Shown here piece by piece: positions 479-28,690 of a DNA stretch of 31,982 nt. How positions within the stretch are numbered: position 1 is the stretch's first letter; the number at the start of each line of letters is the position of its first letter. A program made the translations under genes and the position numbers. Source of the stretch: a virus (lineage: Duplodnaviria > Caudoviricetes); the IMG/VR virus record IMGVR_UViG_3300037484_000157, positions 1 through 31,982 of that record; one strand, written 5' to 3'. The notes under the pieces are model-generated. The model was not told the DNA's origin and ran no database searches. It saw only the letters and a list, made by a program, of their open reading frames with translations.

Positions 479-3187
479 CTAGGTCATCACCAACCAGTAG
501 GCGACGTGACCGTAGGCCGGCGCGTTGTTTGTGCCATAGACGGCGATTATGTTCTGCTCGCCAGGCAATAGGATCGCAGGATCAACAGCATTCCCGGAAT
601 CGGGGATACTGTTAGAGACAACGGATACACCATTGATCCAGAAGCCGGTAATAACGTCGTCCGCATCGTAGTAGAGAGTCGCGGAAGCAATCACGCCATC
701 AGGTAACGTAAACTTGTGGCGGAACAGGCAGGATACCCCGACGGTTGGCGCGGCCGTATACCAGATGCGGTAGACTGAGGGGTCGAATGGATGCTGTCCC
801 CCTTCGCGCTCGACGGCGTCGCTCCAGCCTGAGTCGTCGAAGGCGAGTTCCTTCCAGCCAGCAGGTTCCGAGCCTAGCTGGAAGCACTTGATAAGCGGGT
901 TGATCGCCGTGGTTGTAGATGGGATGTTCGTCGGCGTGAATGGCACGACGAAGGGCGCCGAGCCGTAGCCCGCCATCAGCGTCTTACCGGCCCGCTCCAA
1001 GTACCAGTTGTAGCCGCCGTCGAACGTCTTGTAGAGGCCGGAGGCGCAAGAGGCCCACAGGATCAGGGGCTCGGTGCCATCCCTGAGCAAGTGGAAGCAC
1101 TCGCCGCCGCCGATGGTGGCGATGTGGGTAAGCTCGGTGGAACCCGGCGCCTTCCGGTAGAACTTCCCGGTCTCGTCGGCGGCGTAGAGGATGTCCTCCA
1201 GAATGTGGTGCGTGAGGCCGCCCAGGCGCTGGGGGACGTGCCCCGCCTCGAAGGTGAGCGGGAAGCCGTCGTTGCGCTTGACCTGGACGTTGCCCGCGCC
1301 GTCGTCGCCGGCGGCGTAGTGGGCGAAGAAGGATAGCGCCAGCCGCTTGGCGGTGTAGCCAGCGTCGAGTTGCCACATGACTGAGCCCGAGGCGATAACC
1401 TGGTTGCCGACCAGCGCCCAGACGACGTTGTCCCAGGCGTAGACCACCCAGTTCACCGGCAGGCCGAACTGATAGACCTTGGTCCAGGTGGAGGCGGCGA
1501 GAGAGGAGGCGTTCAGGGTAGTCCAGACCGCTCCGTCCGCGAGGCCAACAGCCACCTTGTCGGCGTCCACCTCGTTGATCCAGATTGCGTTTACCGCAGC
1601 CGCAAAGGTATGGATGAGCACCGTGGCGGTGGCTAGATAGTCGTCTGTCCTGACCAGGGTGGATCCCACTGCGAAGTAGCTATGGTTCAGCCCGGCGATC
1701 TCCGGCGTGGCGACCGCGTTGTCGGTGACGGTGTTCCAGGTGGACCCACTATCCGGCGTCGCCGCGGCGTCGGTCTCCAGGGCGAGGTACAACTGCCGGC
1801 CCTCGACCTCGTCGGAGTCGTGCGCTGGCAGAGAGACCGTAGCCGTGTCCGTCTCAGCACTCGCGTTCGTCACGACCAGGGTCACGATGCAGGGCGCGTC
1901 GAGTTCTGCCTCGGTCAGGACGAAGGTGTAAGTGATCGCCGTCGAAGTGTCTGCCGTCTGGTCGTTGCTCCAGGCGTAAGTCAGGGCCGACCCATCAGGG
2001 CTGCTGCTCGCCGACCCGTCGCAGTAGACGATGTAATGAACGGCCGCACCCCCGCCCATGTCGAACTTCTCGACGACGATCTTGAAGGTGAAGTCGGCTC
2101 TCGGAATGTAGACCGGGTAGCCCGCCTCGCCCGCGCCGCCGTAGAGGGTCAGCCACATCCAGTAACCGCGCTGCGAATACTCCTCGTCGATCTCGCCCAG
2201 CCAGAGCATCTCGTGGTCTATCGGCACCGAGAGCCCGAGGGCCGTCAGCTCGATCGTGTCCGATGCCTGAAGTAGCGGGTTGCCCGGCACCCGGATCCGC
2301 ACCCGCCGGGTGATGCGGTTCACCGAGGGCATCCAGATGAGGGCCACTTCCGCCGCCTCGGCGTCCGACTCGATCAGATCGTTTGGTACTTCCTGAATCT
2401 CGTCGTAGCCCGAGCGCACGTAGGGACTGTCCGCCCGGCGGGTGGCCGTGGCATCATCCAGGCCCGTAACCTCGACTCGGTTGCGCACGGTCCGAATCGT
2501 GGTCGGGTTGTCGATCTCCAGCACTTCGCCGGGGTAGTCGTAGGACCAGGCGGCCGAGGCAGCCGGCAGAGCCGTGATCGTCTCCCGTCTGACCTTGCCC
2601 GAGGGCAGCCAGTCGAAGGTGAGGTCGAGGTGAGCGTGGTCGATCCGCTGGATGAGGCTCAGGTAGGGCTGTCGCGCGCCCAGGGCCACGTCCTCGACCG
2701 TGCCCAGCGTCGTGTCGTCGCCCCGGATGTCCACGTCGGTCACACCGGCGGACGCGAGAATGGCGGTCACCATCGAGCGCGTGCCCGCGCCGCCGGGGGC
2801 TGTGGCGTAGGTCACGGCAATCGGCGTCTTGCTCTCAGTGAAGCGGAGGAAACCCACCGCCTTGACCGTCCGGCGCTGCGGCCAGGCCCGGGCGCCGTCG
2901 TCCTCGACGTAGCCGGTGAAGCGACGGCGTCTGACGGTGCTCGAGACGGCGACCCAGCCGAGGTCCACCTCGACCCGCTGCCGATAGGCGAGCCAGGGAG
3001 GCCGAGTCACGAGCTCGAGGTCGCAGGTGGCGACCACGTTGCCGCCGCCCTCAGTCGGGAGTCCGAACCCGTGGCGGATCCGGCAGCGGACGCCCATGAC
3101 CCGCCGCCCGTCGATGGCGACGAACGACCACGGCCGGTGCTTGCGGGCCGTGATCGCCGCTATCTCCGAGGCCGTCGCGTTCGTCAC
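479..3187 (-). CDS. Large tail-tip/baseplate hub protein (902 aa) with PKD/Ig-like, beta-propeller-like and C-terminal jelly-roll-like regions
   Basis: Position after Dit-like gene. N-terminal hub-like motifs (FTGYV, VRNRVEVTG, PGNPLLQASDTIEL); PKD-like DGSASSSPDG..LTYAWS; BNR-like TPDSGSTW and KTFDGGYNW; C-terminal FRHKFTLP..ATLYYDADD..FWING. Confidence 0.8.
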   Translation of the reverse strand: MTNATASEIAAITARKHRPWSFVAIDGRRVMGVRCRIRHGFGLPTEGGGNVVATCDLELVTRPPWLAYRQRVEVDLGWVAVSSTVRRRRFTGYVEDDGARAWPQRRTVKAVGFLRFTESKTPIAVTYATAPGGAGTRSMVTAILASAGVTDVDIRGDDTTLGTVEDVALGARQPYLSLIQRIDHAHLDLTFDWLPSGKVRRETITALPAASAAWSYDYPGEVLEIDNPTTIRTVRNRVEVTGLDDATATRRADSPYVRSGYDEIQEVPNDLIESDAEAAEVALIWMPSVNRITRRVRIRVPGNPLLQASDTIELTALGLSVPIDHEMLWLGEIDEEYSQRGYWMWLTLYGGAGEAGYPVYIPRADFTFKIVVEKFDMGGGAAVHYIVYCDGSASSSPDGSALTYAWSNDQTADTSTAITYTFVLTEAELDAPCIVTLVVTNASAETDTATVSLPAHDSDEVEGRQLYLALETDAAATPDSGSTWNTVTDNAVATPEIAGLNHSYFAVGSTLVRTDDYLATATVLIHTFAAAVNAIWINEVDADKVAVGLADGAVWTTLNASSLAASTWTKVYQFGLPVNWVVYAWDNVVWALVGNQVIASGSVMWQLDAGYTAKRLALSFFAHYAAGDDGAGNVQVKRNDGFPLTFEAGHVPQRLGGLTHHILEDILYAADETGKFYRKAPGSTELTHIATIGGGECFHLLRDGTEPLILWASCASGLYKTFDGGYNWYLERAGKTLMAGYGSAPFVVPFTPTNIPSTTTAINPLIKCFQLGSEPAGWKELAFDDSGWSDAVEREGGQHPFDPSVYRIWYTAAPTVGVSCLFRHKFTLPDGVIASATLYYDADDVITGFWINGVSVVSNSIPDSGNAVDPAILLPGEQNIIAVYGTNNAPAYGHVAYWLVMT

Positions 3188-3603
3188 GTGACCGTTGCCC
3201 CCTCCAGCCGGAACGTGAGCTCCAGTTCGTACCAGCGGGCAGCCGCGAGCGTGCCGGAGTTTGCGCCCATGACCGTCTTGCGCCGGCGCCTGGCCCGGTC
3301 GAGGCGCACGCCGGCATAGACGTCGCTCTCGGTCGTGTCGTCGAAGTCGGTGTAGCCGACCGTGAGAGTCCGGGGGTTCTCGCCGACCGAGCCTTCGAGG
3401 GCCGCGGCGTCGGCCTCGGTGTTGACCCGCACCGTCCAGGTGACTACCCGGTCGCCTAGCCCGCCGTACTGCACCTCGTCGTAGTCAGACTCCGGGTAGT
3501 GCTCGGCGTTGGTATAGGACTCGCGCTCCCAGTCGGGGATCCAGCCCTCGTCGTCGGAGACGAGGTCGGCGGTCACCCCGTTGTAGGTGATCTGGCCGCC
3601 CAT
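3184..3603 (-). CDS. Putative distal tail (Dit-like) protein
   Basis: 139 aa, directly after the tape measure gene (1-nt overlap); ends in beta-strand ELELTF. Assigned mainly by synteny. Confidence 0.6.
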   Translation of the reverse strand: MGGQITYNGVTADLVSDDEGWIPDWERESYTNAEHYPESDYDEVQYGGLGDRVVTWTVRVNTEADAAALEGSVGENPRTLTVGYTDFDDTTESDVYAGVRLDRARRRRKTVMGANSGTLAAARWYELELTFRLEGATVT

Positions 3604-6926: not shown

Positions 6927-7379
6927 CTACGAGCCTACGACCGCCCAGGTGAATGCGCCGGTCGGGCGCAGAGCCGCCTCGACAATGATTGGGTCGGGGT
7001 TCCCAGCCTCATCGGGGATTCGCAGGTTTGCCAGCAGCATCTCGAACGAGTACCGATCGGAACCAGGGGTGTCGTCAGGGATGCTGACCTGGAAGGTTCT
7101 CGCCGTCTTGGGATGGTTGAAGTACCAGTCCAGCAACATGTAGAGTGACTCATTGTCGGCCTGGCTGTAGACCACCCGCCAGGTGACGTTACCGTCCCGA
7201 CCGCAGGCCGCCCGCACCGGGAAGTCCGTGCCGAAAGTCCGCAGGCCATCCCCGACGTTCTGAATGAACTCCTGATCCACTGCGCTAGACGAGCCGGTGA
7301 CATCCTGGAGGACACCATTCTCGTCGTCCAGCTTGACAGTCGTGTCGCAGCTATTCACTTGACTAGTGGTCTGGCTCAC
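6927..7379 (-). CDS. Major tail tube protein (150 aa)
   Basis: Size, acidic beta-rich sequence, strong GAGGAGG RBS, position directly before the chaperone pair. Ends ...WAVVGS. Confidence 0.85.
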   Translation of the reverse strand: MSQTTSQVNSCDTTVKLDDENGVLQDVTGSSSAVDQEFIQNVGDGLRTFGTDFPVRAACGRDGNVTWRVVYSQADNESLYMLLDWYFNHPKTARTFQVSIPDDTPGSDRYSFEMLLANLRIPDEAGNPDPIIVEAALRPTGAFTWAVVGS

Positions 7380-8053
7380 GGTTGTCCGCCTCCTCGCTTA
7401 GAGGGGCTGCCGCCCCCGCTTTTCCCATACTTCGCTCGTCTCGTAGCAGCGATCTTCAGCCGAGTCTGAACTGTCTGGGGATGCGACTGCCCCTTCTTAG
7501 CTTGCGCTATCTTCCTCCTCGTCTCCTCGCCCTGATTCCTGCCAATCTGCCGCTGTGCGACCTTGGTGACATGCTCTGGCGACTTTGGCTTGCCTCTGAG
7601 TGCAGCCGCGATCTTGGCCCGATGTTCCGGCGCCTGGCTGCGTCCGCGCTTGGCCGCGGCCATCTTCGCCCGAGTTTGTTGGCTGACCTCGCGCCCACAG
7701 ACCGCTGCCCTCACTGCTGCGATCCGCCTTGCATTTGCCTCCGGGGACATGTGATGGCCCGGCCGGCTGCCGCCACGTCCACCATCCGAGCCGTTCGTGA
7801 GTCGGGCACCGCCCGTCTCAAAGTGGGCTATCCAGTCGCGTTCGGCCTGCTGCCAGTCATCATCTGGCACATCTGCCAGAATCACTGTCGCCGGCGTCAC
7901 GCCCTTGGCGAGAAGAGACCGTATCCACCGCCCTCGGTAACTCTCATCCGTAGCCCGGAGATGGTCATAGAGACGCCTTCGTAGGTCCGTCGTCTTGCCG
8001 ACATATCGGACCTCTCGCGTCTCGGGATCCACCAGGCCGTAGATGATCGCCAC
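7376..8053 (-). CDS. GIY-YIG homing endonuclease with NUMOD3-like repeats
   Basis: IIYGLVDP..VRYVGKT..RRL..H, AERDWI, LTNGSDGG, then repeated (S/T)xExRxKIAxAxxG units. Confidence 0.9.
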   Translation of the reverse strand: MAIIYGLVDPETREVRYVGKTTDLRRRLYDHLRATDESYRGRWIRSLLAKGVTPATVILADVPDDDWQQAERDWIAHFETGGARLTNGSDGGRGGSRPGHHMSPEANARRIAAVRAAVCGREVSQQTRAKMAAAKRGRSQAPEHRAKIAAALRGKPKSPEHVTKVAQRQIGRNQGEETRRKIAQAKKGQSHPQTVQTRLKIAATRRAKYGKSGGGSPSKRGGGQP

Positions 8054-8103: not shown

Positions 8104-8442
8104 TCAGCGGCGGCGCTCGTCTGGCGGCCGTAGCCAGTCCAGCAGTTCGGCCTGCCACCTCCTCACCAGGCTCGGCCCCACCCCGCAGTGCCGGGCCACC
8201 TCGTCGACGTCCGCCTCGATTGCCTGGCAGGCGTCGGTAATCCCGATCTCGCCGAGCCGCTTGCCCCGATGCTGCCAGCCGGGCAGTATCGCCAAGGGCG
8301 GCGGCGCGACCGGCAGCAGCACATTCCGAGCAAGTAGGGCAGTCTTGCTCTTAGCCGACAGGTCGCTCTCCCGGAGGATGCTGCCCCGCCGAAGCGTCCC
8401 GTTCGGCATCGCCAGGTCCACCCGCGCTCGGTAGAGCGTCAT
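8104..8442 (-). CDS. Hypothetical protein (112 aa), possible helix-hairpin-helix C-terminus
   Basis: Start reassigned to ATG 8442 (MTLYRAR), overlapping the upstream TGA; LPGW..RGKRLGEIGITD..A..EAD..EVA..CGVG resembles HhH. Confidence 0.65.
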   Translation of the reverse strand: MTLYRARVDLAMPNGTLRRGSILRESDLSAKSKTALLARNVLLPVAPPPLAILPGWQHRGKRLGEIGITDACQAIEADVDEVARHCGVGPSLVRRWQAELLDWLRPPDERRR

Positions 8443-8901: not shown

Positions 8902-9366
8902 TCACGACCTCACGATCCGACCGACTGCCCGCTCGTAGAGGGCGACGATCCTCGTCAGGTTCTGCTGTAGCCCCCGGTAGATGGCCTGGTCGCCCTTGGT
9001 GCCGCGGCGGCTGATGGCCCGCGCGATGACGTAGGCCGAGACGCCGTGCCGCCTGGCCCACGGGACGAGGGCCGCGATCGGCGGGAAGTGCGGCCGCGTG
9101 TCCTCGTGCGCGAATGGCGCATAGGCGAGGTTCGAGCCCACCACGCCGACGACCTGCTGGCCCATGACTCGGACCTCCGGCACGATGCTCGCCCGCCAGC
9201 GGCCGGTGTCCACCTTGGCGAGTTGGCGGCTGGTACGGGTGACGAGCAGCGTCGCGTCCTGCGTCGCCTGGACGATAGGCGGCCCCGATAGCTCCGTTGC
9301 TATCCGGGTCGCCTCGCGCTGCGCCTCGATCAGGCCGTGCAGCTCTGCTTTCCACGCCGCTGGCAT
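8902..9366 (-). CDS. HK97 gp10-like tail-completion/neck protein
   Basis: AKVDTGRWRASI, VGSNLAYAPFAHEDTRPH motifs. Confidence 0.85.
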   Translation of the reverse strand: MPAAWKAELHGLIEAQREATRIATELSGPPIVQATQDATLLVTRTSRQLAKVDTGRWRASIVPEVRVMGQQVVGVVGSNLAYAPFAHEDTRPHFPPIAALVPWARRHGVSAYVIARAISRRGTKGDQAIYRGLQQNLTRIVALYERAVGRIVRS

Positions 9367-10043
9367 CAGCCCACCGCCGGGCGCACGTAGCGCCCGCTAC
9401 TCAGAATGAACTTCACGTCGGGGTCGAGCTCCGAGCGAAACATCAGCGTGCCCGTCTCGGCCGACCCGATGCTGTCTGCCCAGGACGAGCCGCCTCTTGT
9501 CAGCCACCGGCAGACCTGGATGATCGTCGCCTGCTTGATCGCCTCCGGCACGGTAGCGGCGTAGCCCCAGCGAGCCTTGACCTGGATCGTCGGCACGCCG
9601 CGATAGGGCACGTCGGGATCGGGCCGGAAGCCCTTGCGGAATGAGAACATGCCGCCAGTGAAGAAGGAGTAGTCGCCCGTCGGGTCCACGATCAGGAGCG
9701 TGTAGGGTGTCCGGTTGAAGTCGGGTGACTCCGGGTCGCCGGAGGCCGCGATGTAGTCGCCCGCCAGCCAAGCCGTGTACGTGCTGTCGGTCGGGCTGTC
9801 CTTGACGTTGACCTCGGTGACCGCCACGCACTCGTCGATCCGCTGGACGGCGACGCCTGAGCCCGCGTAGAGGCGATAGGTGGCGTTGACGAGTGAGAGG
9901 GCGACGAAGCCATCCGGCCTGCGGCAGTAGTTGTCGATGGCCCGGGAGGCGGCGGTGATCATGGCGGCGATGACCGCGTCGTGGGTGGCCCCGGTGATGT
10001 CCGGCTGGGCCTTGACCTCGGCGCTGGTGCAGTAGTCAGCCAT
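9366..10043 (-). CDS. Head-tail connector (gp6/gp15-like adaptor, 225 aa)
   Basis: Start reassigned to ATG 10043: MADYCTSAEVK..ITAASRAIDNYCRR..WGYAATVPEAIKQAT..LDPDVKFIL. Confidence 0.88.
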   Translation of the reverse strand: MADYCTSAEVKAQPDITGATHDAVIAAMITAASRAIDNYCRRPDGFVALSLVNATYRLYAGSGVAVQRIDECVAVTEVNVKDSPTDSTYTAWLAGDYIAASGDPESPDFNRTPYTLLIVDPTGDYSFFTGGMFSFRKGFRPDPDVPYRGVPTIQVKARWGYAATVPEAIKQATIIQVCRWLTRGGSSWADSIGSAETGTLMFRSELDPDVKFILSSGRYVRPAVG

Positions 10044-10710
10044 CGCTCGCCTCCTTGACCCAGCCCACCAGCCCGACCTCGCGATCGTCGACCACCCACA
10101 CATCGAAGGGCCGGCCCAGGCGCTCCGCCTGCTCATTGATCGCCTGGTAGGCCCCGGGCGTCGGGCGGGCACTCGTCGCGGGACTCCAGTCGTGGAAGAG
10201 CATCAGCCCGCCGGGCCTGACCCAGCGCCACCAGCCACAATCCACACGCACGTCTTCGAGCACGTGGCTGCCGTCCACGAAGATCAGGTCGAGCGAGGGG
10301 CCAGCGTAGGCCGACAGATACTCCACCGACCGGGCCTGTCGCACCTCGATCCTGGGCAGGTAGGCCAGGTTACTCTCGGCCGCCGCGTACTCCAGCGCCT
10401 TCGGGTTGAGCGTGACCAGGTGAGCCTCGGGAGCAGCGAGCGCCATCAGCGCCGCGCTGTAGCCGAGAGCAGTGCCGATCTCGAGGATCTCACCCTCGGT
10501 CCCCCTCGGCCCGACGTATTCGAGCGCCAAGTGGTAGAGGACCGCCGCCTCGTGCGACCAGACCTCACGCTTCGAGAATGGCACGAGCAGGCGGGCCAAC
10601 TCCAGGGCCGGACGCAAGCCGGGCCGGCGAGCCTCGACCCAGGCGGTCACGTACTCGCCAGGCAGGCCCCGGAGCGTCAGCCCTCGCTCGACCGCCTCAG
10701 ACAAAGGCAT
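10036..10710 (-). CDS. Class I SAM-dependent methyltransferase (O-methyltransferase/Methyltransf_24-like)
   Basis: ILEIGTALGYSA motif I; DLIFVDGSH; VRPGGLMLFHD. Confidence 0.9.
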   Translation of the reverse strand: MPLSEAVERGLTLRGLPGEYVTAWVEARRPGLRPALELARLLVPFSKREVWSHEAAVLYHLALEYVGPRGTEGEILEIGTALGYSAALMALAAPEAHLVTLNPKALEYAAAESNLAYLPRIEVRQARSVEYLSAYAGPSLDLIFVDGSHVLEDVRVDCGWWRWVRPGGLMLFHDWSPATSARPTPGAYQAINEQAERLGRPFDVWVVDDREVGLVGWVKEASDG

Positions 10711-11689
10711 CGTGCGGCCCCTCCTGGCAGATGTAGTCCAGCGTCTTATTGAGCGCGTGGTTGCGACAGGCTACTCGGCAGTCACCCCCGACCATCTGCG
10801 CCTCACGCCTGGCCCAGAGCGCGGCGAAGGATTCCTCGGCGAGACTCCCGAGACTCCGCTTCCCCCGGGTGTTCGGGCAGACCCAGAGCGTGCCGTCCGC
10901 GCCGACACAGGGCACCAGCTCCGAGGCCCGGCAGAGGCTGTACCCTCGCGGCTCGCCGTCCAGCAGCTCGACGAATCTGCCCCGACTGACGTAGACCCGC
11001 GGCCCGGCGAGGGCGTCAAGCGAGGGCATCGCCTCCCGAATCCAGGAGTAGTCCGCCTCGGGGTCGTCGCTCACGATCGGTCGGAACTGGCAGTAGTCCA
11101 CGCCGATCCTGCCCGCCAGGTCGGCGGCCACGGTCGCGTCTCGCCAGTTCGTCGCGCTCAGGAGAAACCCGAGCCCGATCTTCGGCGGGCCACCACTGCG
11201 GTTGGCGAGTAGCGCCTCGGCCGTGTCCAGCACCTGCCAGAAGCCGTCCACTCGCTTGACCTCCCGATAGGACTCGGCGTCCGCGGCGTCCAGACTCAAG
11301 TAGCACCAGACGAGGGCGTGGCTGGCTTCGAGCAGCGGGTACGGTCTGAGCCCGTTGGTGTAGACCCCGACCTTGAGGCCCAGGCCCGCGGCGTACAGGG
11401 CCAGCCTGGCGAAGTCGGGATGCAGCGTCGGCTCGCCCCCGCCGGTGAACGTGACCGCCCCTGTGCCTCCCGCCGCCATCTCACCGAGGATCCGCTCGGC
11501 GAGGGCGGCCGCCAGCATCTCCTGACCGCGCATGTAGGCGAAGGCGCAGTGCTGGCACTTCGCGTTACACCTGTTCGTCAGGTCCATCTCGACGTTGAGC
11601 GGCCAGACGCGCTCCCCCCGACGGATAGCCGCCAGCACGTCGGGGAAGCGCAGTATCTTGGCCGATGGGTCGATTAGTCGCTCAGCCAA
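10697..11689 (-). CDS. Radical SAM enzyme with SPASM/Twitch-like C-terminal domain
   Basis: CNAKCQHC (CxxxCxxC), FTGGGEPTLHP, YTNG, SLDA; C-terminal C..C.GADG..WVC..LGSL..SF..LW..CRVAC. Confidence 0.95.
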   Translation of the reverse strand: MAERLIDPSAKILRFPDVLAAIRRGERVWPLNVEMDLTNRCNAKCQHCAFAYMRGQEMLAAALAERILGEMAAGGTGAVTFTGGGEPTLHPDFARLALYAAGLGLKVGVYTNGLRPYPLLEASHALVWCYLSLDAADAESYREVKRVDGFWQVLDTAEALLANRSGGPPKIGLGFLLSATNWRDATVAADLAGRIGVDYCQFRPIVSDDPEADYSWIREAMPSLDALAGPRVYVSRGRFVELLDGEPRGYSLCRASELVPCVGADGTLWVCPNTRGKRSLGSLAEESFAALWARREAQMVGGDCRVACRNHALNKTLDYICQEGPHDAFV

Positions 11690-12572
11690 TGCCCAGTCCT
11701 CTCAGTGTCTCCCTGAGCTCGCGGGCGCGTGCCGCCCAGGTGTGGCAGTCCTGCACCCGTCGGAGTCCCTGGTCTGCTATCCAGTGCCAGCGATCCGGGC
11801 CTGCGATGCCCCAACGGTGCGGGTCCAGCATGTCCTCAAGCCGACCTCGCAACTCCCATGTGTCGGCCCATTCCAGATAGTCAACATCGGCCGCACGGAC
11901 CTCACCGCTCACCTCCGGTAGCGGACTCGTCAGCACGCAGGTCCGGCACCCCATCGCGTCGAAGAGCCGGTGATCGCGGTTGAGGGGGGTCCGAGCCAGG
12001 TCCACCGTCACCTTCGCCCGGTTGAATGCCCTCGCGTAGTCGTCGCCCAGCCGCGCGCCCCTGGCATAGACGTATCCCCGCTCCTGGCAGAGCACCCCCA
12101 GCCAGTCACCCAGCTCCCGCCGCTCCGGCGTGTCTTCCGAGAGGTGGTAGGCCACGTCCACCGTCTTCGCCTCGCCCCAGTCGCGGAAGCGGCGGTCATT
12201 GACGCAATGCGAGAACCGCCGGACGGGCTTGCCCAACTGCTCGAACCTCTCCAGGCGGTCCCAGTCCACCAGGATGACGTCAGCCTGAGCGCCGTGCCGG
12301 AGCCTCGCCTGATAGTGCTCATCGTCCAGCGTGCTATCGACCACGACATAGGCGATGGGCGGTCCTTTGTCGACCCAGCGGATGCTCGACTTGCCGTCTT
12401 CCCAGACGATCAGGTCAAACCCCGAGAACTTGGCCCGACTCCGCGTCGAGCCCTTCGGCACCTCGAAGTGCTGCCAGGTAAACTCCGGCACCGGGTAGGC
12501 CCAGTAGCCGACATTGCGCTGGCCGGGTATGCTCCCCGGGCGCGTGACCACGGCGACCCGCAGCGCCTTCAC
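11682..12572 (-). CDS. GT-B glycosyltransferase (CgeB/Glyco_trans_1_2-like, 296 aa)
   Basis: Start reassigned to GTG 12572 (GTGA overlap); YARAFNRAKVTVD..NRDHRLFDAMGCRTCVLT and HTWAARA motifs. Confidence 0.85.
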   Translation of the reverse strand: MKALRVAVVTRPGSIPGQRNVGYWAYPVPEFTWQHFEVPKGSTRSRAKFSGFDLIVWEDGKSSIRWVDKGPPIAYVVVDSTLDDEHYQARLRHGAQADVILVDWDRLERFEQLGKPVRRFSHCVNDRRFRDWGEAKTVDVAYHLSEDTPERRELGDWLGVLCQERGYVYARGARLGDDYARAFNRAKVTVDLARTPLNRDHRLFDAMGCRTCVLTSPLPEVSGEVRAADVDYLEWADTWELRGRLEDMLDPHRWGIAGPDRWHWIADQGLRRVQDCHTWAARARELRETLRGLGIG

Positions 12573-13042
12573 TTCAGCGCCTCCAGGATGCCCCGCAGGC
12601 AGGCCGGACCCGCCTCCGAGGAGACCTCGACGATGCGCCAGGGCAGTATCCCGTAAAGCACGCCGTAAGCCTGCCCTCGCTCGGTCGTCGGGTCGAAGTT
12701 GTCGAGGATGTGGGGGCCAGCGAAGTACCTGTGGGTCGGGTCGTCGTAGCTCCTGGCCCGGTTCCAGAGCGGCAGCTTCAGGTCGATGCGCCCGCTCGGC
12801 TTCAGCACGCGCCACGCCTCGTTCATCGCCTGGATCAGCGGGATGTCCAGGTGCTCGAATACCGAGTGAGCGATCAGGCTGCTGACGCTGCCGTGCTGCC
12901 AGGGCCAGGGGAGCACGTTCAAGTCGTGGACGACCTGGATCTCGGGCCGGTGCCGGAAGCGGTCGTGCTGGACCGCCACCCAGCCGGGGCCGGGCGGCTG
13001 CACCAGCTTGTTGCCGGCGCCAAGATTCACCAGCAGTTTCAC
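12569..13042 (-). CDS. Small class I SAM methyltransferase (157 aa)
   Basis: VNLGAG, HDLNVLPWPW, SVFEHL, NEAWRVLKPSG, DDPTHR. Confidence 0.9.
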   Translation of the reverse strand: MKLLVNLGAGNKLVQPPGPGWVAVQHDRFRHRPEIQVVHDLNVLPWPWQHGSVSSLIAHSVFEHLDIPLIQAMNEAWRVLKPSGRIDLKLPLWNRARSYDDPTHRYFAGPHILDNFDPTTERGQAYGVLYGILPWRIVEVSSEAGPACLRGILEALK

Positions 13043-13509
13043 TTCCTCGGCTCCAGCTTCCCGTACAGGCTCGATCCGCCCGGCACTTCGTTCTGACCCA
13101 CGATCCGCCAGGGCTTGGTGCCGTAGAAGGCGTAGTCGCGCCCTCGCTCAGTGTCGGGGTCCAGCCCGTTCCAGCCGTGGTGCCCGATCCACCAGCGATG
13201 CGTCAGGTCGTTGTGCCCCTCGTCGCTATCCCACAAGGGCATCTTGACTTCGAGGGAGCCACCCGGCCTCAAGATCCGCCAGCACTCGTTGAAGGCTTCG
13301 AGCGGCGTGATCTTGAGGTGCTCGAAGACGGACCAGGAGCAGATCGCGTCGATGCTGCTGTCCGCCCACGGCCAGGGCAGCAAGTTCAGGTCGCAGAGGT
13401 AGTTGATCTCGGGCGAGTGAGCGAACAGGTCGTGGTTTACCACGGTCCAGTCTTTACCAGGCGCACCCAGGATGCGCCTCCCAGCCCCGAGATTCAGCAG
13501 TACCCTCAC
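13039..13509 (-). CDS. Small class I SAM methyltransferase (156 aa), paralogue of 12569..13042
   Basis: Start reassigned to GTG 13509; LNLGAG, DLNLLPWPW, SVFEHL, NECWRILRPGG, NDLTHR. Confidence 0.9.
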   Translation of the reverse strand: MRVLLNLGAGRRILGAPGKDWTVVNHDLFAHSPEINYLCDLNLLPWPWADSSIDAICSWSVFEHLKITPLEAFNECWRILRPGGSLEVKMPLWDSDEGHNDLTHRWWIGHHGWNGLDPDTERGRDYAFYGTKPWRIVGQNEVPGGSSLYGKLEPRK

Positions 13510-16166
13510 GCTTTCACCGCCTGGGGGTGCGCCCGCTCCCACTCGCGCACGCGCGCCCATGCCTCCGGCGTGTCGGAGCGTTGCGGCACGATGCCCGACC
13601 AACGCCGCGCCATCATCGGGTAGTGCATGATGGCCGCGCCGCTCGGGTCGTCGTAGGGATACTTCCACTGGCCGGGCCGCTTCTCGTCGGCCTGACAGAC
13701 GCAGTTCCAGGTCCGAGGCAGCAGTAGCAGCGTCTTGACCGGCTGGTGCCAGATGGCTCGGAGCAGCGCCCCCTGGTCTCGCTTGCCGAACCTCTCCCAT
13801 TCGCGCGCCCAGTCATGGAACAGCCGCTCGATCGCGGGCGTGCGCCGGAAGGCGAAGACGCCGCCGCCGAGCTGCATCATCTGGTCCGTGCCCCAGAGGT
13901 CAAAGGTCTCACGGCACTCGCCCGTGTTGTCGGCCCGCCCCATCTGCTCGGCCACGGCGAACCTGCCCGGGTTCGAGCAGATCGCGAGCTCCCAGCCGTC
14001 CTGTAGCCACTGGAAAAGCGAGTCGATGGGCCGGAGCACCTCCGTGTCGGCGTCGAGGTAGAGGACGTAGCGCCACTCCGGCGGCGTCAGGTCGTAGATC
14101 CTGACCTTCGGCGAGCGAGCGCCGATGTCCGCGTCCGGCTGGACGAGCAGGCTGTCCTCCGGCCCGAGGGGGCGGTCCGAGCAGAGGAGCACGGGTACGC
14201 CGGGCATGCGCAACTTGAAGGAGCCGATGCAGCGCCTCGCCACCTTGCGGGCCGACTCGCCGAAGGCGACGACGTAGAGGCCGGAATGCCCTCGCCAGTC
14301 GGGTAGATCGTCCTGGGCGGGCGCGTGCGTGCCTGTGAGTAGCTCCTCGATTGCCATTCTGTGCCCCTCCGCCCAGGCTTCTATCGAGTAGGGCTCCGTC
14401 GCCGCTCTGAGCGCGTCAGGATCGCTCTTCGTCTCCAGAGCCAGGGCGAGGGCCACCTCCAGGCTCGCCGGGTCGCCTTTCTCGTAGCGGGTGATGCCCG
14501 GCGTGTCCGGCAGGTCGTCCCAGACGCCTACCCCGCGCGGGACGACCACCGGCACGCCACACGCTAGGGCTTCGAGCGGCCCGTAGCCCGTGCCCTCGAT
14601 CAGGCTCGTGCTGATGTAGAGGTCGAGCCCCTGGTAGAAGGTCTCCATCTCCCGCCAAGCGTAGTCCACGGTCGGCACCGGCCAGCCCTTCCCCGCGGCT
14701 CGCCACTCGGACGCCTTTCCCGCCTCCGTCTCGACGAGGGCAGCCAGCAGGTTGTCGCCCTTGCGGCCCCACGGACTGACGAACCCACTGGTCCCGACGA
14801 CTGGCCGGGCGTGCGTCTCTCTCGCCGCCGGGCGGAACTTCTTGCGGTCGAGCGGTGGCCGGACGATCCGAGTTGAGCCAAAGCGCTCCAGGTGCGGGAG
14901 GTTGTGCCGGGAGCTGGTCAGGCGCAGCTCGAGTTGCCCGGCGACGTCGTCCCACCTGGCCGCCTTCTCCGGCCAGCCGGCCTGGTCCTCACGGTGCGTG
15001 AAGTAGGCCGCGGTAAGCGTCCCGCACGGCTCGTGCGCCATGTATGGGAAGAAGTAGTTGACGAGGGCGTGCCGGTCGGGCTCGGGCGAGAGCGACCAGC
15101 CCGTCGCCTGCTGGAGAGTCCTCGCCTTGCGCGGCAGGATCGCGGTAGCGTGCTCGAAGTCGGGGAGCACGATGTGGATGTCGGTGTGGCCCGCCCGGGG
15201 GCGACAGGAGGTAAACGCCCCCGGGTCAGGCGCTGAGGCCACCCCGAACAGCGGCGCAACTGCCGGGGCTTCCAGTGCGGATGGCACTGTCTCAGGATCC
15301 ACCTTGCCCATCACCTCGTCTACCGCCCGCTGCCAGCCGCCGACCCAGGCGTCCAGCGTATAGCCCTCGGTCAGCGCCCGCAGTTCCTCCGGCTCGGCCC
15401 GATCCTCCAGGCAGAGGGCGAGGGCACGCTCGAGATCCGCCAGGCTCCCGGCCCGGTAGTGCCGAACGCCGGACCGCTCGGGGAGGTCGTCGAAGATGCC
15501 GACCTTCCAGGGCACGACCACCGGCACGCCAGTCGCGAGCGCCTCCAGAGGGCCGTAGCCGATGCCCTCTATCGTCGACGTGCAGACGTAGCAGTCGAGC
15601 GCCTGGTAGAACTCGTGGAGTCGGTGCCAGTGGTAGGTCTGGGTCGGGATCGGCCAGCCGCCACCGGCTGCCCGCCAGGAGCAGCCGAGTCCGGTCGGCG
15701 TCTGGGTGAGCGACGCGAGTAGGCTCTCGCCCTTCCGGCCCCAGGCGTAGACCCAGCCGGAGGTGCCGACCACGGGCTTCGCTCCGGACCCCCGCCGGTG
15801 CGGAGCGAGGGCGAACTTCTCGCGGTCGAGCGGAGGCGTGACGAGGCTGGTAGGCCCGTAGTGCGCCAGGTCGGCCAGGTAGAGTCGGGCGGACGTGACG
15901 CGGAGGTCAACCGCCCGGGCCGTGTGATACCAGACCTTGACCTTCTCGGGCAGGCTCTCATCGCGGTGGGTGTACCAGGCGATCTCTCGCGTCTCGCAGC
16001 GGGCGTTGATTCTGTTGAGGTAGGGCATGTAAATGTTGATGCCCGCCGACGAGTCCACCCGAGCGGAGAGTGACCAGTTGGTCCCGTCAGCCAGCAGCCG
16101 GGCCAGCCGGGCGATGATCCGGGCTTCCCTCGCTTCCATTCCTGCGGCGACGATGTGGACTTTCAC
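13506..16166 (-). CDS. Tri-modular glycosyltransferase (886 aa): two GT4-like GT-B modules plus a C-terminal GT-A (GT8/GT77-like) module
   Basis: Two EX7E motifs (EGIGYGPLEALATGVPVV; EGTGYGPLEALACGVPVV); C-terminal LYLDADT (DxD), GGVFAFR, DQGALLRA. Confidence 0.92.
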   Translation of the reverse strand: MKVHIVAAGMEAREARIIARLARLLADGTNWSLSARVDSSAGINIYMPYLNRINARCETREIAWYTHRDESLPEKVKVWYHTARAVDLRVTSARLYLADLAHYGPTSLVTPPLDREKFALAPHRRGSGAKPVVGTSGWVYAWGRKGESLLASLTQTPTGLGCSWRAAGGGWPIPTQTYHWHRLHEFYQALDCYVCTSTIEGIGYGPLEALATGVPVVVPWKVGIFDDLPERSGVRHYRAGSLADLERALALCLEDRAEPEELRALTEGYTLDAWVGGWQRAVDEVMGKVDPETVPSALEAPAVAPLFGVASAPDPGAFTSCRPRAGHTDIHIVLPDFEHATAILPRKARTLQQATGWSLSPEPDRHALVNYFFPYMAHEPCGTLTAAYFTHREDQAGWPEKAARWDDVAGQLELRLTSSRHNLPHLERFGSTRIVRPPLDRKKFRPAARETHARPVVGTSGFVSPWGRKGDNLLAALVETEAGKASEWRAAGKGWPVPTVDYAWREMETFYQGLDLYISTSLIEGTGYGPLEALACGVPVVVPRGVGVWDDLPDTPGITRYEKGDPASLEVALALALETKSDPDALRAATEPYSIEAWAEGHRMAIEELLTGTHAPAQDDLPDWRGHSGLYVVAFGESARKVARRCIGSFKLRMPGVPVLLCSDRPLGPEDSLLVQPDADIGARSPKVRIYDLTPPEWRYVLYLDADTEVLRPIDSLFQWLQDGWELAICSNPGRFAVAEQMGRADNTGECRETFDLWGTDQMMQLGGGVFAFRRTPAIERLFHDWAREWERFGKRDQGALLRAIWHQPVKTLLLLPRTWNCVCQADEKRPGQWKYPYDDPSGAAIMHYPMMARRWSGIVPQRSDTPEAWARVREWERAHPQAVKA

Positions 16167-16786
16167 GCTGCCCTCCGCCAGCGAATGAGCTCGCCGGGCC
16201 AGGGCTCAACCATACGCCGTCGCCCCGCCAGCTCGAGCGGGAAACGAGCGACGTACTCCACGACGTCCTGCACTCGCCGCCAGCGCAGGCACTCCATCTC
16301 ACCGAACTCGAAGCCCTCGTCGGTGCCGGCGACGACGTGCCCGAAGAACCGCCCCCGTGGCTTGAGCAGTCGGCAGACCTCGCGCAACAGCCGCTCCGGG
16401 TCGAGCGCGTGGTCAAGGGCGTTGGTGAAGACGACGTCGATGGTCCCCGCGGGCCAGGGCAGGGCGTGGAAATCGCCCGTGAGTACCAGATCGCTCCCCG
16501 GCGGCGGCGCGAGTTCTATCCCGACCGCAAAGCAACGGTGCTCCAGAAACGCTCGGACTTCGGCTCCCTCGCGAGCGCCCAGGCAGAGCACAGAGCTGCC
16601 TGGCGGGATGAGACCGGTGAGTTCGTCTCTCAGCGCCGTCTGGTAGATCGCTCCCCGCTCGGCCAGAGCCGCCCCGTCCCGTTCCCAATCGGCCTCGGCT
16701 GCCTGATGCCGGAGGTAGCTAGTGCGGTCCGGATAGTCGCGCACCTCGAATGGCGTGCCGGGCAGAGAGCGCCACGGTGATGTCAC
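16163..16786 (-). CDS. Class I SAM-dependent methyltransferase (207 aa)
   Basis: Start reassigned to GTG 16786; VLCLGAREGAEV, AVGIEL, GDFHALPW, DVVFTNALDH, REVCRLLKPRG. Confidence 0.88.
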   Translation of the reverse strand: MTSPWRSLPGTPFEVRDYPDRTSYLRHQAAEADWERDGAALAERGAIYQTALRDELTGLIPPGSSVLCLGAREGAEVRAFLEHRCFAVGIELAPPPGSDLVLTGDFHALPWPAGTIDVVFTNALDHALDPERLLREVCRLLKPRGRFFGHVVAGTDEGFEFGEMECLRWRRVQDVVEYVARFPLELAGRRRMVEPWPGELIRWRRAA

Positions 16787-17412
16787 GCTGCCGCCCTCCT
16801 CGCCGCGCCGAACCTGTGCTCGACCATGTCGCCCTTGCCGCCATTCCACGTTCTACCCATCAGCCACACGCGCGCGGGCGCGCGCCAGAGCGCCCGGAGC
16901 AGCGCCCCCTGGTCCTGCGAGCGGAACTTGAGCCACTCCTCGCGCCAGAGGGCAAAAAGTTGGGCCGTCGCGTCGCACCGGCGGAACCACATCACGCCCG
17001 CCTGGAGGCCGAGGACGTGCTCGGTGTGCAGCGCGTTGAACGTCGCCTCTCGGTCAGGCAAGAGGCAGTTGCCCAGCAGGTCGTTACCCTGGTTCTTGCT
17101 CGGCGTGATGACCAGGTCCCAGCCGTCGTCGAGGACTTGGAACCCTGCCTCCAGGCTGCCGTGTACCCGGGTGTCGGCGTCCAGGTAGCAGGTTGCCTCG
17201 AAGGGCGAGAGCGTGCCGAGACTCAGCTTCGCCAGCCGCGCTCCCTGGTCGAGATCAGGAGCGTGGAGGTGCGTGTAGCCCTTGAGCGGGCGGTCGGAGA
17301 CGACAGCCATCGGCAGTCCGGGGTTGCTCTGCCCGAGCGACCGCAGGCAGGCCGTCGCCTCGCGCCTTGCCCTGTCTCCGTAGGCCACCACGATGATGCC
17401 CCTCTCCATCAC
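16783..17412 (-). CDS. GT-A nucleotide-diphospho-sugar transferase (GT8/GT77-like, 209 aa)
   Basis: GIIVVAYG, SPFEATCYLDADT (DxD), QAGVMWFRR, DQGALLRALW. Confidence 0.9.
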   Translation of the reverse strand: MMERGIIVVAYGDRARREATACLRSLGQSNPGLPMAVVSDRPLKGYTHLHAPDLDQGARLAKLSLGTLSPFEATCYLDADTRVHGSLEAGFQVLDDGWDLVITPSKNQGNDLLGNCLLPDREATFNALHTEHVLGLQAGVMWFRRCDATAQLFALWREEWLKFRSQDQGALLRALWRAPARVWLMGRTWNGGKGDMVEHRFGAARRAAA

Positions 17413-18041
17413 TCGATCCAGGTCGCCGGCAGCGCCAAGACCAGCGGCTTGACCTGGTAGATAGCTCTGAGCAGCGCCAGGTGCTCGTCAGGCCCCCGAG
17501 CCCGCTCTGCCTGCCAGGCTGCCAGCATTTCCTCGGTCGCCTCGGTGCGCCGGACGAACATGGCCCCGCTCTGGTAGGCCGGCACCCGCAGGTCGTGGAT
17601 CAGTTCCGCGGTCAGCGCCCTCTCCGACTCGTCGCCCACCTCCGAGGCCAGCCCCTGCGCCGAGAGGAGCGGCACCGCGACCTCCCAGCGTTCGAGCAAC
17701 CCGAACCCCGCGCCGATGAGGTCGATCCTCAGCCGCACGTCCGCACTCCAGACCAGCGTGCGGTTCCAGGGGAGAGAGACGGGTCCATCCAGTGGGACGC
17801 CTTGTAGCCCGCCGCCATAACCGATCTTGTCCAGCCTGGCCTTCGCCTCGCCCACGGCACCCCGCACCAGGATGCCCGACCTGGCGTCGGCGTCCAGCTT
17901 GATCGGTCCGATGGCTCTGGCCGAGCCCTCGGCGATCCACTTCAAGGCAGCCTGCTTGCCCACCTCGACCCAGTCCCCCGGGCGATAGACCCGGCTGTCC
18001 AGTTGCTTGGCCTGGAGTAGCTGGACGTAGATGGCTCGCAC
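17409..18041 (-). CDS. Degenerate GT-A-like protein (no DxD) with a small N-terminal capsid-accessory-like domain
   Basis: C-terminal part is collinear with the neighbouring GT-A domains (QSGAMFVRR, DEHLALLRAIY, LPATW) but has WSAD in place of LDAD; strong AAAGGAGG RBS. Confidence 0.72.
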   Translation of the reverse strand: MRAIYVQLLQAKQLDSRVYRPGDWVEVGKQAALKWIAEGSARAIGPIKLDADARSGILVRGAVGEAKARLDKIGYGGGLQGVPLDGPVSLPWNRTLVWSADVRLRIDLIGAGFGLLERWEVAVPLLSAQGLASEVGDESERALTAELIHDLRVPAYQSGAMFVRRTEATEEMLAAWQAERARGPDEHLALLRAIYQVKPLVLALPATWIE

Positions 18042-18088: not shown

Positions 18089-18529
18089 CTAGGTCACGTG
18101 CTCGGCGAGGTTGCTGTCGTCGACCGCCTGGAACCTCGGCTCGTAGCGCAGGATGATGGCCGAGGTCAGGCAGGCGACGTTGCCGCCCACGTTCAGAACG
18201 ACGTTGATCCAGTCGAAGTTGTTGCTCACGTCGAGCTCGCTGGTGTCGAGCTCGATCACGCAGATGACGTTGTCGTCGCCAGCGGCGAGGGTCGTGATCG
18301 ACTTGCCGGTGACGATCTTGGCCCCCGTGCCAGCATCGTCCTGAGCCTGCATGATCTTGAGGTCAACGGCGGCGGCGACCCCATTCAGCCCGCCGTTGTA
18401 GATGACGACAGCCTTGTGGTAGTCGCGCATCGAGAGCCACCCGGTCGTCGCCTCGGCCTCGGTCCGGCTCGCCGGGGAGATGGCCGTGATCTTGTGACCC
18501 TCGGTGAAATACTGAGTGACGTTGCTCAC
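18089..18529 (-). CDS. Putative capsid decoration/cement protein (146 aa)
   Basis: Immediately after MCP; beta-rich, TGWLSMRDY..IMQAQDDAGTGAK..FDWINVVL pattern. Confidence 0.7.
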   Translation of the reverse strand: MSNVTQYFTEGHKITAISPASRTEAEATTGWLSMRDYHKAVVIYNGGLNGVAAAVDLKIMQAQDDAGTGAKIVTGKSITTLAAGDDNVICVIELDTSELDVSNNFDWINVVLNVGGNVACLTSAIILRYEPRFQAVDDSNLAEHVT

Positions 18530-18586: not shown

Positions 18587-19912
18587 CTAGCTGCCCGAGC
18601 CCGCGCCCAGAACCACGAACGGCGAGACGGTACTGGTGCCGTCCGCGAGGGTCAGCCAGTCCGAGAGCCAGGGCTGGCCGTCCACGCGATGCACGACTCG
18701 CCAGCTTGTCTGGTCGTAGGACCAGCGGTCGAACTTGGTGGACTCGACCGTCGTCGCCTGCCGGTCTCCGATGACGTAGTAGGACAGGTCGTACAAGCCG
18801 ACGTCGCCCCGCGAGCCAATGACCGGCGGCTTCTCCGACCAAACGACTGGATAACCGAAGATCGTGCCAGGGATTCCGTCCCGGGCGTTCGGGATCCAGA
18901 CGTAGGAGGCGTTTCCAGCCGGCCCTGACATCTGGATGAACTCGGAGAGGAGCGACTGGCTGATGACCCAGACGAAGCGCCCGCCGGGTAGCGCGTGCTC
19001 CATCATGTGAGCCAGGTCGGTGAAGTCCACCGCGTTGACGACGGCCCGCGGAACGACGATCGTGCAGCCGGCGTCGATCACGCCCAGCGGCTGGCCGGCG
19101 CCCGTGCCCCGGAGGAAGGCGTAATCTTCCATCCAGGCGACGCCGCCGGCGAAGCCGAACGGCCCGGAGAAGAAGGCTTCGAGGCTGATGGCCGAGTCGT
19201 CCACGAGCTCGTCGGACACTCGGGTGTAGCCGATGAGCTTGTGGGCCACCAGGCTCGCCTGCTTGAAGGCGGCGTCGGTCTCGGTCTTGGCGCTGGCCTC
19301 TTCGGCCCAGTAGAAGCGCATCCCGCCGAACCAGTGGGGCTGGCCGGCAGTCGTGCCGGTCTGATCGACGACGGGAATGTCGATCTGGCGCCGGCGCATC
19401 GGGATGACGGTCGCCCGCTGGCGGACGATGCTCCGCTCGGCGACCGCGGCCTGGAGCTGGGCCTGGAACTCGGCGGGGATCAGGAACCCACCGCCAGCGC
19501 CCGAGGCCCCGGACATATCCTTGGCCTCGACCGTGCCGATCCGCTCGTCGTTGTCCTTGAAGTAGACGAGGCGGGAGTCGGCGGCGCCTTTGTAGTTGGG
19601 GTTACCGGCCTCCCAGGTCTTGTAGAGGAACTCACCCCAACGCTTGAAGGTCGACGGGGCCAGGGAGCGCGGTCCCTGCTTGCGCTCGATCTCCTTGATG
19701 GCGTCGGGGCCGATGCCCGCCTCGAAGATCGACTTGAGGCTAACGGCCCGGGACTTGAGATCCTGAGCGTCGGCGAGCATCGCGGGAACGCGGTTGCGCT
19801 CCTCCTGGGTGCTCTCCTTGTTCGTCAGGATCTCATTCATCTCCTTGAACAGGTTGGCGCTTGCCGCGAGCATGTCTTCCCAGGTGCGCGGCAAGGTCGC
19901 AGTGATGACCAT
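18587..19912 (-). CDS. Major capsid protein, HK97 family (441 aa, with N-terminal delta/scaffold domain)
   Basis: GGFLIPAEF, WAEEAS.KTET, AHKL.GY.RVSDELVDDS, AFLRGTGAGQPLGV, GTIFGYPVV, RVDGQP. Ends LGAGSGS. Confidence 0.97.
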   Translation of the reverse strand: MVITATLPRTWEDMLAASANLFKEMNEILTNKESTQEERNRVPAMLADAQDLKSRAVSLKSIFEAGIGPDAIKEIERKQGPRSLAPSTFKRWGEFLYKTWEAGNPNYKGAADSRLVYFKDNDERIGTVEAKDMSGASGAGGGFLIPAEFQAQLQAAVAERSIVRQRATVIPMRRRQIDIPVVDQTGTTAGQPHWFGGMRFYWAEEASAKTETDAAFKQASLVAHKLIGYTRVSDELVDDSAISLEAFFSGPFGFAGGVAWMEDYAFLRGTGAGQPLGVIDAGCTIVVPRAVVNAVDFTDLAHMMEHALPGGRFVWVISQSLLSEFIQMSGPAGNASYVWIPNARDGIPGTIFGYPVVWSEKPPVIGSRGDVGLYDLSYYVIGDRQATTVESTKFDRWSYDQTSWRVVHRVDGQPWLSDWLTLADGTSTVSPFVVLGAGSGS

Positions 19913-26709: not shown

Positions 26710-26988
26710 TCACCCTCCTCTCAGCACCACCACGAACAGCCACGCCGCCAGGTCCCACAGACGCCACACGCCGAGAATCATCAGCCCTCCCGCGATCAGC
26801 ATCGGCCAGAGGCTCCGCTCCTCAGCCTTCGGCGCCAGCCCCCTCGGCGGGAGTCTCCGGAACGCCACGCCCGACTGAGCGTTCGCCTCCATGCACCAGC
26901 CGGCGAGGGGGTCGTCGATCGCGAGGTCGTCGGTAGGGCGGATGTAGCGAAGGCCGACCAGAGAGAGTTTCATCCAGGGGCCGGTCAT
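26710..26988 (-). CDS. Hypothetical membrane protein (92 aa)
   Basis: ATGA overlap at 26985-26988; hydrophobic C-terminal segment LWPMLIAGGLMILGVW..LAAWLFVVVL. Confidence 0.55.
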   Translation of the reverse strand: MTGPWMKLSLVGLRYIRPTDDLAIDDPLAGWCMEANAQSGVAFRRLPPRGLAPKAEERSLWPMLIAGGLMILGVWRLWDLAAWLFVVVLRGG

Positions 26989-27335
26989 ACGGCCCTCCAC
27001 TCAAGCACTTCCTCATCCGTCGCGTCGTGCAGCCACGCAGCCACGAGCCCTCTGTGACAGCGCTTGCGGTCCTTCTCCCAGCAGAGCAAGATGGAGTCCC
27101 AGCCGAGGTAGTCGCCGATCTGCATTGGGTCCAGTCGGTCGAGCACCTGCTCGCGGTAAAGCGTCCTGTACAGGTACCACGACAGGCGACCCGCCTTATA
27201 CTCTGCCAATAGCTCTCTCGATGGTGCCAAGGCCAAGCAGGTCCGCCCCTTCCAGCCAGGCGGCACGCCCCTACTGATCGCCACGCAGCGGTCCAGCGGC
27301 AGCCCGGGCTTGCGGAAGCAGGATGTCTGGATCAC
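26985..27335 (-). CDS. DUF488-like protein
   Basis: TSCF, VAISRGVP, LAPSRELL, ILLCWEK...CHRGLVAAWL motifs. Confidence 0.8.
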   Translation of the reverse strand: MIQTSCFRKPGLPLDRCVAISRGVPPGWKGRTCLALAPSRELLAEYKAGRLSWYLYRTLYREQVLDRLDPMQIGDYLGWDSILLCWEKDRKRCHRGLVAAWLHDATDEEVLEWRAV

Positions 27336-28671: not shown

Positions 28672-28690
28672 TGCCCCCCCCGGTTCAGAT

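Follow-up and report, generated by a model that had tools for sequence, protein, structure and literature searches.

What do nine enzyme genes modify when they stand between the capsid and connector genes of a tailed phage? The question is raised by IMG/VR record IMGVR_UViG_3300037484_000157, a single contig of 31,982 nucleotides (nt) that was analysed over its whole length (the window) and carries a tailed-phage late operon on its minus strand, in the order terminase, portal, MuF, protease, HK97-type capsid, a 146-residue protein (the cement candidate), nine enzymes (g1 to g9), connector, neck and tail (Table 1). The original prediction had read the nine genes as a glycosyltransferase (GT), methyltransferase and radical S-adenosylmethionine (SAM) pathway that builds a glycan on the virion. 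Our analysis points to O-glycosylation of the capsid C-terminus, late and in the cytoplasm, as the probable function, in which g1 and g2 would prime, g4 and g7 extend, and four methyltransferases and g8 tailor the glycan.

We confirmed the nine overlapping minus-strand open reading frames (ORFs) between the post-capsid gene and the gp6-like connector, with starts set, like that of the connector gene, from the position of the ribosome-binding site and from homologue alignments. From g1 to g9, adjacent genes overlap by 4, 4, 4, 4, 4, 4, 8 and 14 nt, g9 overlaps the connector gene by 8 nt, and a gap of 47 nt precedes g1.

A two-gene core linked to the capsid gene

Searches with g1 and g2 returned at least 228 loci (designated by L numbers), forming 140 groups at 90% identity; the larger g1/g2 scans contributed the best 80 of 86, of 347 and of 288 confirmed matches. 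Of the 97 groups whose upstream DNA is long enough to judge, 95 have a capsid gene ahead of g2 within 6.5 kb. An unfiltered metagenome scan, not restricted to viruses, gave 20 loci that extend 2.5 kb or more ahead of g2, and 19 of them have the capsid gene there. The original prediction had staked itself on such linkage to morphogenesis genes, and the linkage holds. Among the exceptions, g2 follows a terminase-like gene (read from sequence) or precedes a portal gene in L155, L157 and L128, and in L183 no capsid gene was found ahead of g1-g2-g4. The first three represent a Corndog-like position in another phage group, and L157 and L128 each encode a likely methyltransferase.

The pair is also the most constant part of the cassette: g2 is present in 134 of the 140 groups, g1 in 125 and g4 in 100, followed by g9 (26), g7 (25), g5 and g6 (16 each), g8 (3) and g3 (2), the counts for the later genes being lower bounds as many loci stop before the cassette end and the connector is visible in 26 groups. 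Eight long loci retain g1 and g2 without g4 (L074, L109, L186, L195, L204, L221, L223 and L272). The cassette consists of a fixed core (g1, g2 and usually g4) and a swappable tail that varies like an O-antigen locus. The methylation and radical tailoring of the original prediction stand as gene content and move to the periphery of the pathway, since g8 and most methyltransferases are accessory and not core.

Terminal Ser/Thr residues as candidate acceptors

In the loci selected through g1 and g2, the capsid protein ends in Ser or Thr in 101 of 101 groups. Such ends occur in 3 of 38 portal, 1 of 23 connector and 13 of 106 cement proteins, and in 5 of 6 groups of the relatives' tail tube proteins. 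To avoid selecting on the cassette, we added capsid-anchored searches (the best 80 of 567 and the best 80 of 493 matches) and six cultured phages, dereplicated the set at 90% and scored a group as being without g1/g2 if at least 2 kb downstream were visible. The capsid end is Ser/Thr in 110 of the 111 groups that carry g1/g2 versus 14 of the 46 that do not, a contrast that is inflated because the bearers of g1/g2 are largely one clade, and in 7 of 11 groups assigned to neither class. The sole exception among the 111, L255, is frameshifted near its end; L273 was counted as being without the pair despite a g2-like piece. A Fisher test on this contrast (p 3e-21) was rejected as a measure of significance because of shared ancestry.

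A capsid tree computed with FastTree, from which the tail columns were excluded, places at least 21 exchanges between terminal Ser and Thr. Both Ser codon families are used, and positions -2 to -4 take 9-13 residues. This swapping of Ser and Thr beside variable positions suggests selection for a terminal hydroxyl. The cassette-less loci L285 and L286 nest with the cassette-bearing L282 and L289 (support 100); their cement gene is followed directly by the connector gene, their capsids end in SPFVVLN/A without the tail, and the L286 tube protein ends in YTTI.

Several observations weigh against the terminal residue as the acceptor. The tree offers four independent pairs on well-supported branches, of which about two are concordant and none discordant (sign test p 0.5). 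Among the 14 Ser/Thr-ending groups without g1/g2, five encode a GT4 protein, one more belongs to their clade, L313 and L317 carry other sugar-related islands, L270 looks disrupted and L273 is the case described above; no GT was found in the remaining L306, L316, L335 and L360. The capsid of Javan105, which fell below the score cut-off and stands outside the counts, also ends in Ser without a cassette. Conversely, outgroup GT islands in L294, L327, L331 and L308 accompany capsids without a terminal Ser/Thr, and the tube protein of the cassette-bearing L225 ends in Asn.

Some of these observations would be accommodated if the glycans of virion proteins were attached internally, or to the cement, connector or LamG proteins, with the terminal Ser/Thr serving as a structural hydroxyl contact in the shell: the Ser/Thr ends in groups without g1/g2 and the outgroup islands beside other capsid ends would then be expected, and LamG-domain proteins often close the slot. 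We consider this unlikely, since L285 and L286 lose the tail together with the cassette while the cement gene stays, and since tube proteins, Che8 and Corndog have the same ending.

Three further window proteins, the cement candidate (18089-18529), the hub (3184-3603) and a 902-residue tail protein (479-3187), all end in Thr; most cement homologues do not, and the coincidence may be due to chance. In six outgroup loci (L314, L321, L325, L330, L341 and L344), a second capsid-like gene directly adjoins the end of the capsid gene and is followed by the cement gene; five of the six have a GT4 gene, and all capsids end in Ser/Thr. Outgroup islands of GT, methyltransferase, sulfotransferase or LicD type follow the cement gene in L294, L327, L331, L307, L308, L311, L358, L301, L305, L313 and L317. 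Most capsids of these phages lack a Ser/Thr end, and a different attachment site is possible.

A degenerate GT8-like protein and a GT8-like enzyme

Neither g1 nor g2 matched Pfam, PHROG or NCBIfam. The two GT-A domains of the original prediction correspond to g2 and to the C-terminal domain of g4, which are 40% identical. The DxD motif is kept in 131 of 131 groups for g2 and in 64 of 66 for the g4 domain, and the DQ motif in 129 of 131 and 62 of 66, respectively. By the combination of a DxD with a downstream DQ, both are assigned to the GT8 (glycogenin-like GT-A) family; of 120 g2 homologues listed, 6 carry a precomputed PF01501 annotation. The best solved relatives of the g2 profile are glycogenin (E 1.8e-4) and the Skp1 alpha-galactosyltransferase (E 0.28), which share DAD and DQG-type motifs with g2 over short, weak matches. 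We predict that g2 is the priming transferase.

The C-terminal part of g1 is a paralogue of g2 (hhalign 98.6%), and the g1 model (predicted local distance difference test, pLDDT, 93) has a GT-A fold at residues 48-210. DxD occurs in 2 of 115 g1 groups, so that g1 lacks the motif of an active GT8 enzyme. This agrees with the original prediction of a DxD-less GT-A domain, which had overlooked a separate small domain formed by the first 45 residues (pLDDT 89.5 when folded alone). Among the fold matches of the small domain, the C-terminal domain of the lambda protein gpFI (2LSM) ranks second in Foldseek (template modelling score 0.73, root-mean-square deviation (r.m.s.d.) 1.8, E 0.35), and a second comparison gave Z 5.2 and r.m.s.d. 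2.0 over 44 aligned residues. In lambda, the capsid gene is followed by that of gpFI, a protein that binds the head through its C-terminal domain. The protein gpFI is described as bridging capsid and terminase (PMC13595911). A special kinship with gpFI is made less certain by GINS B-domains (Z 7.2) and ribosomal L9-N (Z 5-6), which match the small domain as well or better; YqbF follows at Z 3.9.

The 66 members of the small-domain family gave no significant Pfam match. Ribosomal L27, the sole Protein Data Bank (PDB) match of their profile (E 0.0075), was judged a chance hit. The nearest Atlas clusters are stand-alone 50-residue proteins, one of them DUF7210 (0.81, a lead only), and a stand-alone copy of the small domain precedes a different GT island in L294. 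Taken together, the fold and the degenerate motifs lead us to predict that g1 is a dead-enzyme adaptor that would bring g2 to the prohead. As a side observation, a 112-residue neck protein (window 8104-8442), whose gene is kept in relatives, has an N-terminus that resembles the g1 small-domain pattern by eye.

A swappable slot of tailoring genes

We scanned 146 ORFs of the slot in relatives. They encode GT2, GT4, GT47, TOD1-type and GT-D-like transferases; TylF and other methyltransferases; sulfotransferases and formyl- and acetyltransferases; uridine diphosphate (UDP)-glucose dehydrogenase, epimerases and PglF-like dehydratases; and DegT, RmlC, split transketolases and LamG proteins. The original prediction had used the lack of nucleotide-sugar genes to argue about the target. 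That argument falls, as relatives often carry such genes in the slot and their absence is a feature of the window genome.

The closest relative among the matches listed, L001, has the same nine genes at 69-87% identity, with a TylF gene and a short UDP-glucose dehydrogenase-like gene in addition. Such short genes (286-293 residues, with a weak NAD-domain match) stand just after g8 in L001 (18520-19401) and L369 (9364-10224); the window has none. Four slots (L121, L228, L003 and L005) end before the connector with LamG or beta-helix proteins, possibly head spikes, and genes for phosphonate ABC-transporter binding proteins lie in or beside the slot in L109 and L317. The cement gene has paralogues, two or three in tandem, in L164, L220, L278, L288 and L313.

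With its epimerases, DegT, PglF-like dehydratases, RmlC and formyl- and sulfotransferases, the slot resembles a bacterial surface-polysaccharide locus, and soluble GTs are able to use lipid carriers that face the cytoplasm. A host surface glycan, either an S-layer glycoprotein or a polysaccharide, might therefore be remodelled for superinfection exclusion or lysogenic conversion. We regard this as distinctly unlikely. In agreement with the original prediction, which had seen neither a flippase nor a membrane GT, g1-g9 contain no membrane segment (maximum 19-residue hydropathy 0.61-1.57). Of 559 ORFs that encode 130 or more residues, from 66 related loci, just 3 have two or more hydrophobic segments, and flippase, polymerase and GtrA families were absent among the 146 scanned ORFs. 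The cassette genes are coupled to those of the head operon, scans for promoters and terminators in the window gave no signal beyond that of shuffled sequences, and a host target would leave the capsid ending unexplained.

Predicted extension and tailoring enzymes

Both GT4-like domains of the original prediction were located in g4 by Pfam; the two stretches are 49% identical and each keeps RKG and E-x7-E. The GT4-GT8 architecture occurs in 73 groups and the doubled-GT4 form in one, shared with L001. All four predicted methyltransferases were recovered, as Methyltransf_11 (g3, g5 and g6) and Methyltransf_24 (g9) proteins, with g5 and g6 46% identical. The g4 protein also passes the cut-off of the family PF20706, named GT4-conflict (39.4 bits versus 26), and residues 113-191 of g9 match a PHROG labelled DNA methyltransferase.

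The radical SAM part of the assignment of g8 stood, and its SPASM match lies below the cut-off. CxxxCxxC, GGEP and four C-terminal cysteines (C253, C271, C304 and C308) are invariant in 72 of 72 homologues of at least 300 residues, out of 77 at E 1e-30 or better, and the four cysteines suit a single auxiliary cluster. The best solved relative is BlsE (E 1.9e-9), which acts on a nucleoside (PMC3715490); DesII, like BlsE a sugar-modifying radical SAM enzyme, is also among the top PDB matches, and BtrN and NeoN were not seen there by name. Membership of the BlsE cytosylglucuronate decarboxylase family was rejected (TIGR04466, 36.9 bits versus a cut-off of 400).

The genomic context of g8 was read from ten full-length viral relatives, out of 49 loci returned: nine have enzymes of nucleoside diphosphate (NDP)-sugar type near g8, and in the tenth g8 stands in a head operon that also encodes a g7-like GT and a methyltransferase. 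The gene directly before g8 is g7-like in all four cassette-type loci. One locus, L377, has three g8-like radical SAM genes in a single sugar-enzyme cluster with transketolase, DegT and RmlD. We therefore consider g8 a likely sugar-tailoring enzyme, a prediction that is tempered by the BlsE match, which spans only residues 37-151 of the radical SAM core. The g8 protein defines an uncharacterised radical SAM family.

Hypermodification of phage DNA around packaging, in which the gpFI-like domain of g1 would hold the enzymes at the prohead-terminase complex, is highly improbable: it could draw on the PF20706 match of g4, the PHROG label of g9, the nucleoside substrate of BlsE and the few g2 homologues that adjoin terminase or portal genes, but base-hydroxylating and nucleotide-modifying families were absent among the 40-44 ORFs scanned in the window, itself part of a genome, and a surface glycan is the better match for the hypervariable sulfotransferase and NDP-sugar content and for the capsid-end correlation.

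Proposed mechanism and relation to known systems

We return to O-glycosylation of the capsid C-terminus. The virion glycan of the original prediction is supported by head-gene synteny, by soluble enzymes and by a candidate acceptor residue that tracks the cassette, the glycosylation itself being what we infer. The glycan would be methylated and O-linked to the C-terminal Ser of the capsid protein, and probably to that of the tail tube protein too. In the proposed pathway, the catalytically degenerate g1 would dock g2 on the prohead and g2 would add the first sugar. The chain would then be lengthened by g4 and g7 from host nucleotide-sugars and O-methylated by g3, g5, g6 and g9, and g8 may alter one sugar by oxidation, epimerisation or uronate decarboxylation. 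From the gene content, folds, motifs, synteny and terminal Ser/Thr pattern we infer these chemical steps, their order and the binding of g1 to g2 or to the capsid. A more ambitious proposal, which we rate at somewhat less than an even chance, is that the cassettes form a 'capsid serotype' system peculiar to a large uncultured phage lineage, in which a GT8 pair of pseudo-enzyme and enzyme, aimed at the prohead by the gpFI-like domain, would prime the terminal Ser/Thr and the swappable slot, with g8 as an undescribed sugar enzyme, would give each strain its own methylated or sulfated glycans, on as many as all subunits of the capsid.

Freeman et al. (2023) reportedly place the Che8 glycan on the terminal serine. 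Among tailed phages, only a few mycobacteriophages have been shown to glycosylate their virions, a modification that shields the particles against antibodies (PMC12363180, PMC11256854); glycosylated virion proteins are reported for both Che8 and Corndog (PMC12363180), and GT and O-methyltransferase genes in the Corndog head operon have been put forward as the source of methyl and glycan groups on its capsid (PMC4351075). Like Che8 gp108-110 and Corndog gp35-38, the cassette combines soluble phage GTs with a methyltransferase domain and has no flippase or membrane GT. The capsid and tube proteins of Che8 and Corndog end in KTGS, SDGS, LVGS and KGDS and those of the window in GSGS and VVGS, all with a terminal Ser. 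TylF-like methyltransferases from the slots of relatives match Che8 gp108 (E 7e-14) and Corndog gp35 (E 6e-13), whereas the g1, g2, GT4-domain and g7 profiles have no detectable homology to the Che8 and Corndog GTs (best E 0.09). The cassette goes beyond both phages in its pseudo-GT8 protein with a small N-terminal domain, its fixed slot between cement and connector genes, its hypervariable tailoring set and its radical SAM enzyme. We conclude that it is kin in kind to Che8/Corndog glycosylation, adding a two-gene core, a capsid-end correlation and a serotype-like slot, on an interpretation that is supported but unproven.

More distant comparisons were also made. In the algal giant virus PBCV-1, multi-domain viral GTs and SAM methyltransferases build and O-methylate the capsid glycans (A064R and A061L; PMC9614988). 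Domain 1 of A064R (2p6w) is among the fold matches of the g1 GT-A domain (Z 8.0, r.m.s.d. 3.2, 132 aligned residues), a generic fold, and PBCV-1 carries N-glycans, unlike the predicted O-linked glycan of the cassette. The GtrA, GtrB and polytopic GtrC of Gtr-type serotype conversion are lacking from the cassette. No match to g2 or to the g4 GT4 domain was found among 50,697 phage records, and no cultured phage record among them has either; no description of the lineage or cassette was recognised from titles and abstract openings, a search outside which subscription papers and supplements lay.

If correct, our reading would establish a second virion glycosylation system of tailed phages, with non-homologous GTs. 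Antibodies are unlikely to be the selective pressure on a glycan coat in environmental phages. The lineage would offer a named acceptor residue, a priming unit of two genes and more than 100 natural variants, which would make the purpose of a phage glycan coat testable in E. coli, and a pair of soluble GTs with specificity for a short C-terminal tail would serve as a useful tool for protein glycosylation.

Organization of the window

The coordinates of the cassette and of the structural genes discussed above are collected in Table 1. The 'decoration' label that the original prediction gave to the post-capsid gene finds backing only in an Atlas lead to the Bbp16 cement family (score 0.91, in 15% of cluster members), and the cement profile had no sequence match in the PDB. 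The gene is kept in the cassette-less relatives L285, L286 and L291.

Table 1. Genes of the cassette and neighbouring structural genes, in window coordinates
Feature	Position	Strand	Evidence
HK97-fold major capsid protein, C-terminus ...GAGSGS	18587..19912	-	Pfam Phage_capsid E 1.5e-41
146-residue protein after capsid gene, likely cement/decoration	18089..18529	-	phrog_28483 (unknown function)
g1: 45-residue N-terminal small domain (L9-N/GINS-B/gpFI C-terminal domain fold) and DxD-less GT8-like domain	17409..18041	-	
g2: GT8/glycogenin-like GT-A, DAD and QDQ motifs	16783..17412	-	624 homologues
g3: class I SAM methyltransferase	16163..16786	-	Methyltransf_11 E 1.2e-9
g4: GT4-GT4-GT8 tri-domain protein	13506..16166	-	Pfam GT1/GT4, two stretches
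g5: short class I methyltransferase, 156 residues	13039..13509	-	Methyltransf_11
g6: short class I methyltransferase, 157 residues, g5 paralogue	12569..13042	-	Methyltransf_11
g7: GT-B-type glycosyltransferase	11682..12572	-	Glyco_trans_1_2 E 6.2e-11
g8: radical SAM enzyme, CxxxCxxC and four invariant C-terminal Cys	10697..11689	-	Radical_SAM Pfam E 1.8e-16
g9: methyltransferase, likely O-methyltransferase	10036..10710	-	Methyltransf_24 E 5.1e-16
gp6-like head-tail connector, closes slot	9366..10043	-	phrog_442 E 1.1e-16
Putative tail tube protein, C-terminus ...AVVGS	6927..7379	-	assigned by position; no family match

The G+C content of the cassette (0.64-0.69) matches that of the structural genes, and its G+C content at third codon positions is 0.80-0.92 versus 0.86-0.93 in the structural genes; the match gives no sign of recent import. 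A repeat scan of the window yielded nothing beyond chance except the repeats expected of paralogues, and the window ORFs scanned included no recognisable integrase or lysis gene. Clues to the host conflict, with two homologues named Anaerolineae and with one homologue and four loci in Parcubacteria/Paceibacterota metagenome-assembled genomes, the latter being probably mis-binned viral contigs. A GIY-YIG/NUMOD3 homing endonuclease gene (7376-8053) immediately precedes the putative tail tube gene, and genes for DUF488, ASCH, excisionase-like helix-turn-helix and ParB proteins lie upstream of the terminase gene (26985-30492).

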